A stretch of 64,000 nt of DNA, from positions 144,961 to 208,960 of the forward strand of contig CAXXPD010000003.1 of assembly GCA_963666415.2 (NCBI GenBank). The letters run 5' to 3'. Positions within the stretch are counted from its first letter, which is position 1, and every line of letters starts with the position of its first letter. The notes below the pieces were generated by a model. It had not been told where the DNA came from. It made no database searches and worked only from the letters and a program-made list of their open reading frames with translations. This DNA comes from Dehalococcoidia bacterium (GTDB taxonomy: Bacteria > Chloroflexota > Dehalococcoidia > Lucifugimonadales > UBA3495). Both the position numbers and the translations under genes were made by a program. This document shows, piece after piece, positions 8,740 to 20,814 of the stretch.

Positions 8740-11598
8740 TCAATCGTCGGTCCTGCTCTGCTTCCTCGTGGTTCCCGAGGTTGTCGTTTTAGGTGGACCC
8801 TGCCACCATTGCAGTCTGCCGTCGGCGTGTTCGTATGCTTCAACGTCGGTTGTCACGCGGACGGTGCGGCCCAACGGGTTGGTTACGTCCCAGTGCTTAC
8901 CGCCTTGGTGGTGGACGGCCCATCCTGATGGCATCAGTTCAGGTTGCCACAGCGGCTTCTCCAGGTCGTCAATGGTGACGCGTGGGTTGACCGGAGCGTT
9001 TGGCACGTCCCAGTCGGCGTTCAGCCGATTGATGTCAAAGTCGTTCTGGTTAGCCAGGAGTTCCAGCTCGGTGTCTGGGTTTGCCTCGTCGCGGATGATG
9101 CGCTGGATTCCAGCAGCGATGATGGGAGGGTATTCCCCGACGTTGGCTCTTATACTCTCGAAACGGCGGGCAACAGCTTCGTAGGCATCATGTTCTGCGG
9201 TGTCTTCGTAGAACAGGTTCACTACGTCAACGACTAGGCGTTCTTGCCCGATGCGGTCGATGCGACCGGCTCGTTGTTCGAGGGTCATCGGGTTCCAGGG
9301 AATGTCGTAGTTGACTACAGCGGAGCAGAACTGCAGGTTGAGCGATTCCGACGCTGTCTCCGTGCAAAGCAGAATGCCCTGCCGTTGCTGTCTGAATTCG
9401 TCCAGCCGGCGGCCGCGGTCACCCAGGTGGCCATCTTGGCCGTACAGCTCGGTCACGTAGTGGCCGCCTTGTTGCAGATGTTCGGATAGCCAGCTCTGCG
9501 TGTCGCGGAACTGCGTGAACATCAGGATGTGATTGTGCCCCTGTTCCCGCAACTCTGTTATGACGCCATCCAATCGGCGGCGTTTGCTGTCCTGGTAGGA
9601 CAGTCTTTCGGCTTCGTCGGCGGCTTTGAGCAGTGCGTCCAGGTTGATGGCGTTGTTGAGGGCATTGGTTTCGCGGTCTGTGAGGAAGTCCCAGTCGGCG
9701 TCGTTCAGAAGGGTCATCCAGTCGTCGGCGTCCTGGGGGATGCGGTTGGCCGCATTACGCAAGGTTTGAGCGTAAGCGTAGGTTGATGAACCCATGCGCT
9801 TGCGGAAAATCGTAGTGATGAAGCCCAGTGCCTGCGGGTTAATGTCGCGACCGCTGTAGCATTGCTGGATCAATGGCTTGATGCCGTCGTACAGTTGGCG
9901 TTCCTCGGGCGTCATAGTGATGGTGACGTCTCTCGCGTGGCGCTCCGGCACGGGCATATTTAGCAACCCCTGAAGCCGGTAATGGCGCAGCAGCTCACGG
10001 GTATGGCGGCTCATCAGCCGCTTGGCCGGCGCCCCCTTCTGCATGGTGTCGAGCGTGGCTTGCAGCGCGGCGGGCTCTTCCAGCTGGCTGGCGATGTAGT
10101 CGTCGTTTTCGCTGCCGAGTAGGAAGTCGTTGGTGTCTGGCGGGTTGGTCTTGCGCCACAGGTCGCGGCGGTACTTCCACTCCCCCATGTCGGGAGGTTC
10201 ATCCTGGTAGAAGCGGCGGTATTCGGCGGCGTTCCAACCTTCGGGTTCCAGCAGTTCCAATAAGGCCCAAAGCTCTACCTCGTTGAGTTGCATCGGTGTG
10301 GCGGTGAGTAGCAGCAAATCCCTGGTCTGGTGCGACAGTTGGCGCAGCAGTCGCAGGTACTGGTTGGGCTGGCGACGCTGTTCCAGATCAACGTCACGGA
10401 AGCGGGCCCGGTGGGCCTCGTCTACGATGATGAGGTCGTACTCGCCGCAGCTTGAAAGGAACTGGTCGGCGTTGCGTACCAGCCACTGGTGGCCGGCTAT
10501 TGCCAGCGGGACGTCCCAAGGTGGGCTGGCGACAGGTTCGGTTCGTCCGTCGCGGTAGTAGCGGCCGTGGGTGTCGATGATTGGGGCGTCGATGGCGAAC
10601 TTCATCAGCAGTTCGCTCTGCCACTGTTTGGTGGCCGCCTTGGGGGCGATAATTAGCGCACGGTGGGCTTTGCCCTGGTTGAGGCGTGTCTTGAGTATGA
10701 CGCCGGCTTGCAGTGTTTTACCCAGCCCTACTTCGTCGGCAATCAGACGGCGCACGGGTTCGTTGCGAACGTTCTGCTGGCGGAAACGCTCCTGGTGTGG
10801 CCAAAGGGTGGTTGGGATGGTCGCAACTGTGCTGTCGGGGTCGTCGGCGAGAGCGTCGTAGATTCTCTGCCAGTAATCGTTGGTCGAGTAGTTGTTGCGG
10901 CGTTCACGGATTGATCTAATCTCGGGCGGCGACGCCGGAGCCCGTTCCACAATGTAGTCGCGGTAGTAGGCCGGCAGATCAGTGACGCGCAGTCCGCCGG
11001 CCTGGTTTGTCCACAGTGCTTGAAATTCTGCTTCGGTAGCCTCTAGGTGCTGTATGGTCGCGCCGTCGGTGTACACGTGGACGGACTCCCAATTGTGTCG
11101 CCATCCGGACAGAGTTTCATTGAGGCTGCCGGCGAAGGCTACGCGGTTGCCTTGGGCGTCCTCAACGATGCCGCTTTTGTTGTGAAAGATCCGGTCTCCA
11201 CGGACGGCGACTTTCACTTCCATGATGCCGTTGGCAACCAGCCAGTAGGCCAGCTCTAGGTGGTTGCGGTCGGCGATGTCGGCGGTTTCAGTCAGCAGTA
11301 GGTCTTCGCGACGGGCCGTTTGTTGCAGGGCCGTCTCAGCGTCCAACTGGCCGTCGTGGATGGCCTGTAGCACATCTTCGTGGACGCTGTGGTCGCAGAT
11401 GAGGCGGATGCGCCCACCGTTGCGGATGAGGGCGGCGGTGCCGGTTGCCGCCGCAATCAGTCCCTTGGCTGTGAAGGTGTAAGTTGTCCGGTCGTAACGC
11501 ACCGCTTGCTCAAGCAGAGGCTCGTACAGGCCGGCAAGCATGTCAGGGCAGTTGCCGTGGTTGTACACGGGATGGAGGTTTAGGTCGGTGAGCGGCAT
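8740..11598 (-). CDS. PLD-family nuclease domain fused to an SNF2-family helicase
   Basis: 952 aa. PLD motifs: FHNKSGIVED and GSLNET. SNF2 motifs: ADEVGLGKT, IIVDEAHRAR, LLLTATPMQ, QRAGRIDRIGQ. Confidence 0.9.
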   Translation of the reverse strand: MPLTDLNLHPVYNHGNCPDMLAGLYEPLLEQAVRYDRTTYTFTAKGLIAAATGTAALIRNGGRIRLICDHSVHEDVLQAIHDGQLDAETALQQTARREDLLLTETADIADRNHLELAYWLVANGIMEVKVAVRGDRIFHNKSGIVEDAQGNRVAFAGSLNETLSGWRHNWESVHVYTDGATIQHLEATEAEFQALWTNQAGGLRVTDLPAYYRDYIVERAPASPPEIRSIRERRNNYSTNDYWQRIYDALADDPDSTVATIPTTLWPHQERFRQQNVRNEPVRRLIADEVGLGKTLQAGVILKTRLNQGKAHRALIIAPKAATKQWQSELLMKFAIDAPIIDTHGRYYRDGRTEPVASPPWDVPLAIAGHQWLVRNADQFLSSCGEYDLIIVDEAHRARFRDVDLEQRRQPNQYLRLLRQLSHQTRDLLLLTATPMQLNEVELWALLELLEPEGWNAAEYRRFYQDEPPDMGEWKYRRDLWRKTNPPDTNDFLLGSENDDYIASQLEEPAALQATLDTMQKGAPAKRLMSRHTRELLRHYRLQGLLNMPVPERHARDVTITMTPEERQLYDGIKPLIQQCYSGRDINPQALGFITTIFRKRMGSSTYAYAQTLRNAANRIPQDADDWMTLLNDADWDFLTDRETNALNNAINLDALLKAADEAERLSYQDSKRRRLDGVITELREQGHNHILMFTQFRDTQSWLSEHLQQGGHYVTELYGQDGHLGDRGRRLDEFRQQRQGILLCTETASESLNLQFCSAVVNYDIPWNPMTLEQRAGRIDRIGQERLVVDVVNLFYEDTAEHDAYEAVARRFESIRANVGEYPPIIAAGIQRIIRDEANPDTELELLANQNDFDINRLNADWDVPNAPVNPRVTIDDLEKPLWQPELMPSGWAVHHQGGKHWDVTNPLGRTVRVTTDVEAYEHADGRLQWWQGPPKTTTSGTTRKQSRTDD

Positions 11599-11660
11599 TT
11601 GAGGCGTTGTTCCTACGTTACGAGAGTATCTGCAGGATATGCGTGCCGGGTTTCGGCGAG

Positions 11661-12533
11661 CTAATGACGAGCGACTTCGCAGATGAATTCGATGGCACCC
11701 TCGACCCGGTTTTTAATAGCGGACAATTGGGTTATCGAGTACTCGCCCGCTGGGCCATGGGTTCCAGTGTTCAACAAGGGGAACAGAGCCACAACATCGG
11801 CGATATTGGTGTCTGCAAAGCTTTCAAGAGCTTCGTCTGCATGTCCTTGCCGCTGGAGTAGGAATTGTAATTTGGCGCGTCTGCTCGGTGTCCCTTGCGG
11901 TGTCATTGGACAGTTTGGGAGTCGTTGAAGCACTTCGGCATTGGGTGCCTCAATGTCGAGAATGGTGACGATGATTTCTCGGGAACTTGCACAAAAGTGC
12001 CTGGCTGCGTCGGGGTTATTTGGGTGCAGGGCGAACAGCGCGCCACCCCAGCGGTCATTGAGCTCTGGCGAAATTCTGACCAACGATTCAGTGATTGTGG
12101 TGTTCGTGAAGTCCAGCGCGGCTTCTGGTGGGTCGCCCCTATCCTCAAGGAGACTGCTCAGCACTTGAGCGCTGTTCGCTGTTTCGCGCTCCGCGAGGTC
12201 TGAAAGGAATGGGTCAGCGTTGCTGGCGTCCAGCCGCTCGTATGCACTGGTAAGTTCCCGCACTGAGTGATGGACTGTGGTGTAACGGACAGTGATAGTT
12301 TGATGCGACAAGCGGCTGAGGGCAGACCGTAGTCGTGATTGGTTAGCCCTAACCCTGGCGTTGTGCGCTCGAGCCTCGCGGTTGTAGTTATTGATGGCAG
12401 TGTTAACGCGGGCGTTGCGGGATCTCACCTCGTTGTTGTACTTGCTGACCACGTTCTGCACCGCTTGGCGGCGTTTGGCCTCTGCTTGGCGCAGTTTTGA
12501 CTGCATCTGTGAACGGTTTATACGTCTCGCCAT
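11661..12533 (-). CDS. hypothetical protein with an Asn/Arg-rich coiled-coil N-terminus
   Basis: 290 aa. Internal repeats NNEVRSRNARVN / NNYNREARAHNARVRAN. Lies in the operon between the methylase and the helicase. Confidence 0.6.
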   Translation of the reverse strand: MARRINRSQMQSKLRQAEAKRRQAVQNVVSKYNNEVRSRNARVNTAINNYNREARAHNARVRANQSRLRSALSRLSHQTITVRYTTVHHSVRELTSAYERLDASNADPFLSDLAERETANSAQVLSSLLEDRGDPPEAALDFTNTTITESLVRISPELNDRWGGALFALHPNNPDAARHFCASSREIIVTILDIEAPNAEVLQRLPNCPMTPQGTPSRRAKLQFLLQRQGHADEALESFADTNIADVVALFPLLNTGTHGPAGEYSITQLSAIKNRVEGAIEFICEVARH

Positions 12534-20544: not shown

Positions 20545-20616
20545 AGGGGAATTGCTCCAAGGTTGGGTAGCGTCAGGGTGACGCCTGACCGCGGGCTTTC
20601 CGTCTAATCGTGGGAA

Positions 20617-20814
20617 CTATGCGACGGTGTTCTGAGGGCGTTGGTCGTGTTGGGCGGCACGTTTGTCCGCCGGCCAGTCCAGCTTGCGGGGCTTGTTCCA
20701 ATAGGCGCTTTTACATTTGGGGCAGGTCTTCGGTTCTTCCTTAGTGCTCTGGCGAGGCACCCAACGGTACTTGCACCGCTCGCAGAGGAAACCTTCAATC
20801 AGAATACGGGCCAT
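20617..20814 (-). CDS. small Zn-ribbon protein
   Basis: 65 aa with CERC...CPKC. First ORF of the co-directional cluster. Confidence 0.5.
   Translation of the reverse strand: MARILIEGFLCERCKYRWVPRQSTKEEPKTCPKCKSAYWNKPRKLDWPADKRAAQHDQRPQNTVA

Follow-up and report, generated by a model that had tools for sequence, protein, structure and literature searches.

A probable restriction-modification-like anti-phage locus of the DUF499-centred BREX-related class in a Dehalococcoidia bacterium, with four conserved genes and exchangeable cargo

An operon of eight minus-strand genes lies at 8740-20814 of the stretch of DNA analysed here (the window: 64,000 nucleotides of a Dehalococcoidia bacterium, phylum Chloroflexota, assembly GCA_963666415.2, contig CAXXPD010000003.1, positions 144,961 to 208,960). 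The system that it encodes is probably restriction-modification-like, directed against phage and of the DUF499-centred BREX-related (BR) class, also known as Hma, with cargo genes in insertion hot spots and with four core genes: a DUF499 ATPase, a DUF7680 protein, a DUF1156 DNA methylase and a Swi2/Snf2 (SNF2) helicase with an N-terminal HKD nuclease of the phospholipase D (PLD) type. A first-pass annotation, made from the nucleotide letters and a list of open reading frames (ORFs), had recognised eight co-directional minus-strand genes, all of which were confirmed in place, and had taken them together as one distinct methylation-linked defence system without a described mechanism. Comparison with relatives and with profile libraries supports a different division of the operon, into a unit that is conserved and genes that come and go.

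Conserved core and variable cargo

Relatives were collected by scanning one genome per species with the methylase as query, and the gene content of the 54 loci recovered was determined by tblastn with all eight proteins. Nearly all of these loci were from metagenome-assembled genomes of Dehalococcoidia, Caldilineaceae or Anaerolineales; more distant relatives of the methylase (33-39 % identity) were present in other phyla. The order DUF499, DUF7680, methylase, PLD-SNF2 helicase, with the DUF7680 protein between ATPase and methylase, was kept in 37 of the 54 loci, whereas the other four genes of the window were not conserved with this core. Similarity between the DNA of the window and that of its relatives fell into three blocks (8780-11598, 12583-15497 and 17150-20873), with breaks exactly at the outer ends and at two internal sites. 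The first of these, slot A, is the gap between the DUF7680 and methylase genes and ranged from 9 nt to ~5 kb among relatives; the second, slot B, is the gap between methylase and helicase genes (27 nt to ~2.4 kb). The outer limits of homology, at ~8780-8800 on the helicase side and at 20873 on the other, agree with the operon boundaries drawn previously.

The contents of the slots differed in almost every relative. A BrnT toxin gene and the gene that follows it, encoding an uncharacterised protein of 450 residues (460 if read from a GTG), occupied slot A in only four of the 54 loci (L003, L006, L037, L052). The gene for a predicted nuclease with a pP_pnuc_1 domain occupied slot B in only two (L007, L015), and the Zn-ribbon gene stood upstream of DUF499 in 13, all of them of nearer clades. 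The window's own set is a mosaic, its slot A being of the type seen in L006 and its slot B of that seen in L007. Elsewhere the slots held DUF6575 pairs, TIR, MNT-HEPN fusions, DUF5677, an SDH-type protease, ApeA-like HEPN, a NACHT NTPase, an OLD-type AAA_21 ATPase, a metallo-beta-lactamase with a patatin, DUF1828, or transposases of insertion sequences (IS, including IS3), and in several loci (e.g. L008, L038, L041) both slots were empty or nearly so. In the close relative L079, whose helicase protein is identical to that of the window and whose shared DNA is 94-95 % identical, the Zn-ribbon and pP_pnuc_1 genes are present and the BrnT pair is gone, only its extremities remaining (L079 5900-7400 as compared with window 15500-17150). 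Judged by gene order across these relatives, the conserved unit is one of four genes, and the window is one of many cargo configurations.

An alternative, closer to the first-pass annotation, is that all eight genes form one integrated and undescribed system in which the cargo is obligatory. The complete eight-gene order was found again in three metagenome contigs (L068-L070), Zn-ribbon and pP_pnuc_1 genes included, with different flanks and with a 450-aa protein just 74 % identical to that of the window, and the genes are tightly packed, with overlaps of 4 and 20 nt. The rarity of both inserts, the loci with empty slots, the mosaic origin of the window's combination, the loss of the BrnT pair from L079, and the existence of that pair as a separate unit elsewhere (L066/L067) all argue in the other direction, and we consider obligatory cargo quite unlikely. 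What stands of the idea that three extra genes belong to one system is thus their recurrence as a full set in L068-L070; as slot contents in general they are variable. Profile searches (Pfam, PADLOC, NCBIfam) also failed to bear out an undescribed system, since known models covered the core four-gene set.

The features of the operon are listed in Table 1. The likely true start of the 460-aa gene is an ATG, and that of the methylase gene a TTG that overlaps the preceding stop as TTGA. With these starts, and with a frameshift in the ATPase gene (discussed below) removed, the intergenic distances are +72, +18, +27, -20, -4, +33 and +62 nt; the largest gap reported earlier stood, and the smallest, -50, became -20. 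The hairpin said to close the operon is present (8682-8701, 8 bp, of which 7 G-C, with the T-rich tail reaching 8672), though 18 matches to the terminator consensus were found as compared with 16.5 expected in shuffled sequence, so that the hairpin alone is weak evidence. Nothing convincing was found in a sigma-70 promoter scan upstream of the operon, and an Rfam scan of 8300-21200 returned solely sub-threshold matches to miRNA precursors, on the palindrome described below.

Table 1. Features of the operon, in window coordinates and in order of transcription
Feature	Position	Strand	Remarks
Zn-ribbon protein, 65 aa	20617..20814	-	CERC...CPKC; accessory, first gene
DUF499 AAA+ ATPase (HmaC-like)	17607..20544	-	core; ~978 aa after frameshift removal
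DUF7680 protein, 145 aa	17151..17588	-	core; PF24728 4.4e-11
BrnT-family RNase toxin, 93 aa	16842..17123	-	cargo, slot A; PF04365 1.8e-22
Uncharacterised 450-aa protein (460 aa from GTG)	15509..16861	-	cargo, slot A; BrnT partner; likely start ATG 16861
DUF1156 N6-adenine-type DNA methylase (HmaB-like), 981 aa	12567..15512	-	core; PF06634; likely start TTG 15512
Perfect palindrome within methylase gene	14809..14870	-	28-bp arms, 6-nt centre 14837-14842
pP_pnuc_1 predicted nuclease, 290 aa	11661..12533	-	cargo, slot B; PF18165 4.8e-37
HKD(PLD)-Swi2/Snf2 helicase, 952 aa	8740..11598	-	core; presumed restriction effector
Terminator-like hairpin + T-rich tail	8672..8701	-	closes operon

Core proteins and described systems

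The ATPase matched PF04465 (5.7e-31) and the PADLOC models HmaC (3.2e-46) and DUF499 (1.9e-29), with a Walker A motif GGGKTH at residues 84-89 and a Walker B motif IDELVHY at 190-196. In the methylase, PF06634 was found at residues 22-70 of the 992-aa ORF (5e-14) and PADLOC HmaB at 9.7e-67; PglXI matched weakly (1e-11). Its motifs include LHVWWARRP, GGGSIPFEA, motif I at 127-135 and DPPY at 572-575. In the helicase a PLDc_2 domain (9.4e-9, residues 38-196) precedes SNF2-rel (1.7e-19, 284-571) and Helicase_C (6.8e-18), and the protein matched PADLOC PLD_Helicase at 9.2e-61. The HKD motif occurs once, as HNKSGIVED at 139-147 (HxK(x)4D), and the protein also contains GSLNET, DEVGLGKT, DEAH and QRAGRIDRIGQ. 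Apart from GGGSIPFEA, the sequence motifs spelled out here had been quoted in the first-pass annotation, and all were present. A large insert bearing a Zn-finger separates motif I and DPPY of the methylase, and it should recognise the target. The methylase of L079 has a different, recombinant Zn-finger region (84 % identical to that of the window or unalignable), so that close relatives seem to swap this target-recognition part.

Hma was introduced with PADLOC in 2021, as a set of helicase, methylase and ATPase (PMC8565338). The helicase-nuclease HmaA of a Halomonas Type-1 system protects against T4, and 66.5 % of hma loci contain inserted genes (Liu et al. 2024, PMC11232893). The class has since been renamed BR and divided into three types (Rakesh & Krishnan, NAR 2026, PMC12839542): in Type-1 the helicase has a C-terminal restriction endonuclease (REase); in Type-2 it has an N-terminal HKD nuclease, and a stand-alone DUF3780 gene is present in 98 % of taxa; Type-3 has PglZ and an inactive STAND protein. 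The same authors found auxiliary nucleases and toxins to be widespread within BR loci, argued that the three core proteins share their ancestry with Type-3 BREX, and kept BrxC (DUF6079) apart from the DUF499 ATPases. The earlier assignment of the DUF499 protein to the BrxC/PglY class is accordingly outdated; BrxC models reached only 1.4e-5 here, over 88 residues.

Among the described types the locus is most like Type-2 BR, which corresponds to the NCBIfam four-gene set of 'anti-phage-associated' DUF499, DUF3780, DUF1156 and phospholipase-D-like protein. The order of ATPase, small protein, methylase and helicase is the same (as in the Stutzerimonas plasmid locus L059, with DUF499, DUF3780, DUF1156 and PLD). 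The helicase has an N-terminal HKD nuclease instead of a C-terminal REase, and in place of a Tudor domain; DUF1156 forms the N-terminal domain of the methylase, which also contains a Zn-finger insert; and additional nuclease and toxin genes are embedded in the locus. DUF499 ATPase, DUF1156 methylase and HKD-Swi2/Snf2 helicase are therefore all present, but DUF3780 is not: the small protein is a DUF7680 protein of 145 aa, as compared with ~200-215 aa for DUF3780. Identity of the three large proteins to their canonical Type-2 counterparts is only 22-27 %, and they are no closer to these than to Type-1, except at the helicase N-terminus. By BLASTP the ATPase was about equally far from Type-1 and Type-2 examples (92-100 bits), and all three large proteins were nearest to the DUF7680-type loci L058 and L065.

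With Hma, or Type-1 BR, the locus has the three core functions in common, HmaC and HmaB being the best PADLOC matches of its ATPase and methylase, and in both, defence genes of foreign origin sit among those of the core. It differs in that HmaA has a C-terminal PD-(D/E)xK nickase (NOV_C) and no N-terminal HKD, in that Hma lacks a small fourth protein, and in that the helicase comes first there (as in L062). The best stretch of the HmaA match covered only part of the helicase core (666-817), and the nuclease of the present protein is the N-terminal HKD domain. The plasmid BR/Hma loci L060, L061, L063 and L064 also have genes inserted between core genes (an ATP-binding protein; SIR2 with an ATPase; a HicB/RelE pair; DUF262 with TrlF), so that slots within the operon are a general property of the class.

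The small core protein had been listed as unknown; it is now assigned to DUF7680 (Table 1). DUF7680 also stands between ATPase and methylase in L058, a Sinorhizobium plasmid system (1.2e-44), and probably in L065, a Rhodococcus plasmid system. A search of the protein for DUF3780 gave no match even at E<=10, and an hhalign comparison of the two families was insignificant (E=0.11), the match falling on C-terminal E..WW helices. An AlphaFold2 (AF2) model of the protein (predicted local distance difference test, pLDDT, 85) is built of four strands and five main helices, the same count as in the published description of DUF3780 (PMC12839542), and found no match in the PDB. The likeness may reflect distant homology or analogy. 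The family is rare: a HMMER profile search of 1.84 billion representatives yielded 50 clusters (50 % identity), with no obvious DUF3780-length cross-match by their listed lengths, the domains not having been scanned. No mention of DUF7680 was found in the literature searched. From gene content and sequence comparison, we conclude that the locus follows the Type-2 BR architecture as a variant with DUF7680, not as a plain member, and that the clade which includes the Sinorhizobium and Rhodococcus plasmid systems appears as a DUF7680-bearing sister of the DUF3780-bearing Type-2 systems.

Could the operon instead descend by degeneration, with loss of the hallmark genes, from Type-3 BREX or class 1 DISARM? 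The helicase matched BrxHI/II (4e-62) and DrmD (1.7e-60), the methylase weakly matched PglXI, and homologous ATPase, adenine methylase and SNF2 helicase with an arguably common origin are found in Type-3 BREX (PMC12839542). Class 1 DISARM likewise combines an SNF2 helicase, a PLD nuclease and an adenine methylase. The locus lacks PglZ, BrxA, BrxB and BrxF of Type-3 BREX, and its helicase itself bears the nuclease, as a fused HKD domain; it lacks DrmA and DrmB (DUF1998) of DISARM, its PLD is helicase-fused instead of a separate DrmC, and it has a DUF499 ATPase. Against the Pfam, PADLOC and NCBIfam profiles there was no PglZ match in the eight proteins and none to DUF1998; DrmA models matched through the shared SNF2 core only, apart from one chance-level match at 9e-3. 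The first-pass annotation had also noted the lack of PglZ, DrmA and DrmB. In the 37 syntenic relatives, too, PglZ, BrxA/B, DrmA and DrmB are all missing, and the four-gene architecture holds over deep divergence, to methylases of 33-39 % identity in other phyla; it is therefore an independent system, not a remnant. With the poor BrxC scores, this makes degeneration from either system very improbable. The claim of a distinct methylation-linked system therefore holds in that the locus is neither BREX nor DISARM, and fails in that the class had already been described, in PADLOC, in NCBIfam and in PMC12839542.

A mechanistic model has been published for the class (PMC12839542), so the locus is not without a described mechanism as had been claimed, although none has been shown experimentally for this architecture. 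Conservation indicates which genes form the unit; the steps that follow are drawn from domain content and from that model. The DUF1156 methylase would mark a motif of host DNA at adenine N6. The ORC/STAND-like DUF499 ATPase would sense unmarked DNA and assemble the complex, perhaps with DUF7680 as reader or adaptor in the place of DUF3780. The SNF2 motor would then move along the DNA while the N-terminal HKD nuclease cuts the invader; since each chain has a single HKD motif, the HKD-SNF2 protein should act as a dimer, like single-HKD nucleases. Of the cargo, BrnT and its 450-aa partner could provide a toxin-antitoxin or abortive-infection back-up, the N-terminal peptide of the partner probably neutralising BrnT; the pP_pnuc_1 nuclease would be an auxiliary or back-up effector; and the Zn-ribbon protein is a possible regulator.

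Several observations weigh against this account. All mechanistic steps come from domains and from the class model, and no experiment exists on any HKD-type member. Even for Type-1, HmaB was without effect on T4 (PMC11232893), so self-marking by the methylase is not established there either. DUF3780, near-universal in Type-2 BR, is absent, and the relationship of DUF7680 to it is unproven by the sequence comparison above. Scores against the NCBIfam equivalogs are far below their cut-offs: 143 bits (1e-41) as compared with 1200 for the ATPase and NF042962 ('anti-phage-associated DUF499'), 179 (1.7e-52) as compared with 1000 for the methylase and NF042963 ('anti-phage-associated DUF1156'), and 321 (1.5e-95, over 27-451) as compared with 1100 for the helicase and NF042964 ('phospholipase D-like anti-phage protein'). 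The recurrence of the eight-gene set in L068-L070 may reflect some functional coupling of cargo and core. Finally, the DUF499 gene is frameshifted as sequenced.

The frameshift (+1) lies in a run of nine C residues (C9; window 17769-17777, coding strand), one base above all relatives. The ORF as sequenced ends at 17644 (966 aa), and the last 52 conserved residues are in another frame, to 17607; an intact DUF499 of 978 aa is found in L068-L070 and L079. Loss of these 52 residues would fit an inactive relic, as would the two nearly identical IS copies that bracket the operon, the many other IS copies in the window, and the decay seen in relatives (a truncated DUF499 and methylase in L037, a broken methylase call in L079). 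The remaining seven ORFs, however, are full length with intact catalytic motifs. The frameshift sits in a 9-nt homopolymer in what are apparently long-read assemblies, the run in L014 is an in-frame C8 (other relatives have interrupted runs), and small indels are frequent between related assemblies, with 32 gap openings in 6.5 kb of the L079-window alignment; a base-calling error is thus likely. We conclude that the C9 frameshift may be an assembly or sequencing error, or slipped-strand variation, and that an inactive relic is unlikely.

The palindrome in the methylase gene

Directly ahead of the Zn-finger CPAC of the methylase lies a perfect palindrome (Table 1). It encodes ..AAVRAQRY-AQT-YLWARTAA.. 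and, folded as single-stranded DNA, has a free energy (dG) of -40.9 kcal/mol (z = -12.9). The 3' arm encodes YLWART, conserved across the DUF1156 family just before the CPxC Zn-finger knuckle; the 5' arm, its reverse complement, is confined to the Chloroflexota clade. Perfect arms of 19-29 bp stand at the same place in 37 related loci, with differing sequences, and the position is shared by L001-L038, L050, L068-L070, L077 and L079. The palindrome has decayed in six others (L015, L045, L048, L022, L027, L036), and in L042 it has a 12-nt central deletion. It occurs once in the window, which rules out a dispersed repeat. A metagenome scan for the palindrome core gave 8 matches, only one of them in a related methylase.

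Covariation was examined in an ungapped alignment of the window and 36 loci, which had been picked for having the palindrome. Over 22 pairs, 99.5 % of positions were paired, as compared with 28-48 % in slid controls, and 17 pairs had changed on both sides. Among the inner 19 pairs (703 cells) there was not one G-U pair or mismatch. The absence of G-U makes an RNA regulatory hairpin unlikely. An antisense intrinsic terminator was also considered: a T-run follows on the + strand, but L004, L008 and L010 have not kept the A/T-rich flank, and a terminator would tolerate G-U pairs and mismatches, so this reading is disfavoured as well.

At the centre, 25 sequences have CCCAAA (or ACCAAA) and 13 have TTTGGG, and at least 12 inversions of it are required on a neighbour-joining tree of the flanks. 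Both alleles are found within one 90 % protein cluster. The contigs L068 and L069, from one sample, have opposite centres, yet differ by five substitutions in 10.4 kb, and their flanking methylase DNA is 99.9 % identical. Either orientation keeps the reading frame, encoding Y-AQT-Y or Y-VWA-Y beside the conserved YLWART-CPxC motif. Strict Watson-Crick arms together with frequent inversion of the spacer are the known signature of template switching during replication between inverted repeats (PMC8604942, PMC8794818), and not that of selection on an RNA structure. We tentatively suggest, as a possibility that we rate below an even chance by a wide distance, that the palindrome is a selected, recombinase-free switch, in which template switching flips the centre at high frequency and toggles AQT and VWA, and with them the specificity or activity of the methylase and the self/non-self setting of the system. 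The alternative is that the palindrome is a functionless by-product of template switching which perpetuates itself.

A second perfect inverted repeat, with 13-bp arms and a 10-nt spacer, was observed in relatives near the 3' end of the DUF499 gene (L037 6778-6813; L068 and L069 7979-8014; L070 3322-3357).

Accessory genes and genomic setting

The Zn-ribbon protein, first in the operon, matched Zn_ribbon_8 (6e-4) and FmdB (9e-4), both below cut-offs. A small RHH/CopG gene fills the same position in other BR loci, and by analogy of position the Zn-ribbon protein is a possible transcriptional regulator of the operon.

The identification of BrnT in the first-pass annotation was upheld, the PF04365 match covering the full length of the profile. 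Wherever BrnT occurred, the 460-aa gene came next, also where there is no DUF499 system (L066/L067). The product of that gene, previously listed as unknown, indeed has no match in Pfam, PADLOC or NCBIfam, and none of the 149 homologues detected has a Pfam domain. In the family alignment E119, D145 (in TPDF) and E163-A-T/K are invariant or nearly so, which is the residue pattern of PD-(D/E)xK nucleases and makes a core of that kind probable. Compared with the PDB and BFVD, an AF2 model of the protein (pLDDT 84) matched no structure significantly; its best matches, all weak, were mostly restriction enzymes or PD-(D/E)XK proteins. We hypothesise, from these residues and the model, that the 450-aa protein is a PD-(D/E)xK-like nuclease.

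As in BrnT/BrnA type II toxin-antitoxin loci, a full-length BrnT is followed by an overlapping downstream gene, but here that gene encodes a 450-aa protein with no match to BrnA (RHH); its N-terminal 69 residues gave no Pfam match of any kind even at E<=10. A disordered N-terminal peptide of ~40 aa (LIPEVTDW..AVRG) is confined to the BrnT-linked members of the family, which always follow BrnT. The ~402-420-aa homologues examined lack the peptide and are solitary, beside integrases or toxin-antitoxin genes; one 452-aa homologue with a diverged N-terminus is likewise solitary. This distribution suggests that BrnT and the 450-aa protein form a two-gene toxin-antitoxin-like module, in which the N-terminal peptide would replace BrnA. 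Members of the 460-aa family elsewhere (L055, L056, L057, L066, L067) resemble an unrecognised mobile defence or toxin-antitoxin component.

The 290-aa protein of slot B had been described as a coiled-coil protein; a pP_pnuc_1 domain in fact covers its residues 153-283, and its N-terminal part is helical and rich in Asn and Arg. PADLOC Aga_Nuclease matched at 1.4e-5, and no match was found among PDB sequences.

The operon and ~3.7 kb of neighbouring genes are bracketed by two directly oriented copies of a 1465-bp IS with a DDE_5 transposase of 421 aa (3605-5069 and 21052-22516; 99.9 % identical). A composite transposon is ruled out: the 4-bp target duplications differ between the copies (CTAA and CTAG), which were thus inserted independently. 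Other multi-copy IS families are present in the window, for example at 25091-26489, 28684-30136 and 32008-33376. An Mrr-type endonuclease gene (Mrr_cat, 5079-5771, + strand) flanks the operon on one side and an MNT-HEPN fusion (NTP_transf_2 and HEPN, 23650-24528, - strand) on the other, so that the surroundings, rich in IS, look like a small defence island. A 292-aa ORF at 955-1833, of the same length as the MNT-HEPN fusion, had no Pfam match.

For the Hma/BREX-related class, these results point to a DUF7680 lineage, common in Chloroflexota and also carried on Sinorhizobium and Rhodococcus plasmids, which current equivalog models miss. Its two precise hot spots within the operon exchange toxin, nuclease, TIR, HEPN and IS genes and are a place to seek new effectors; the 450-aa BrnT partner, without detectable relatives of known fold, is one example of a new gene from such a slot. 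The palindrome is a clear natural case of arm homogenisation and spacer inversion within an essential part of a methylase. If the proposed switch is true, its flip would be a minimal intragenic inverton, and should it alter specificity, it would amount to phase variation of a new and very small type for a restriction-modification-like system.

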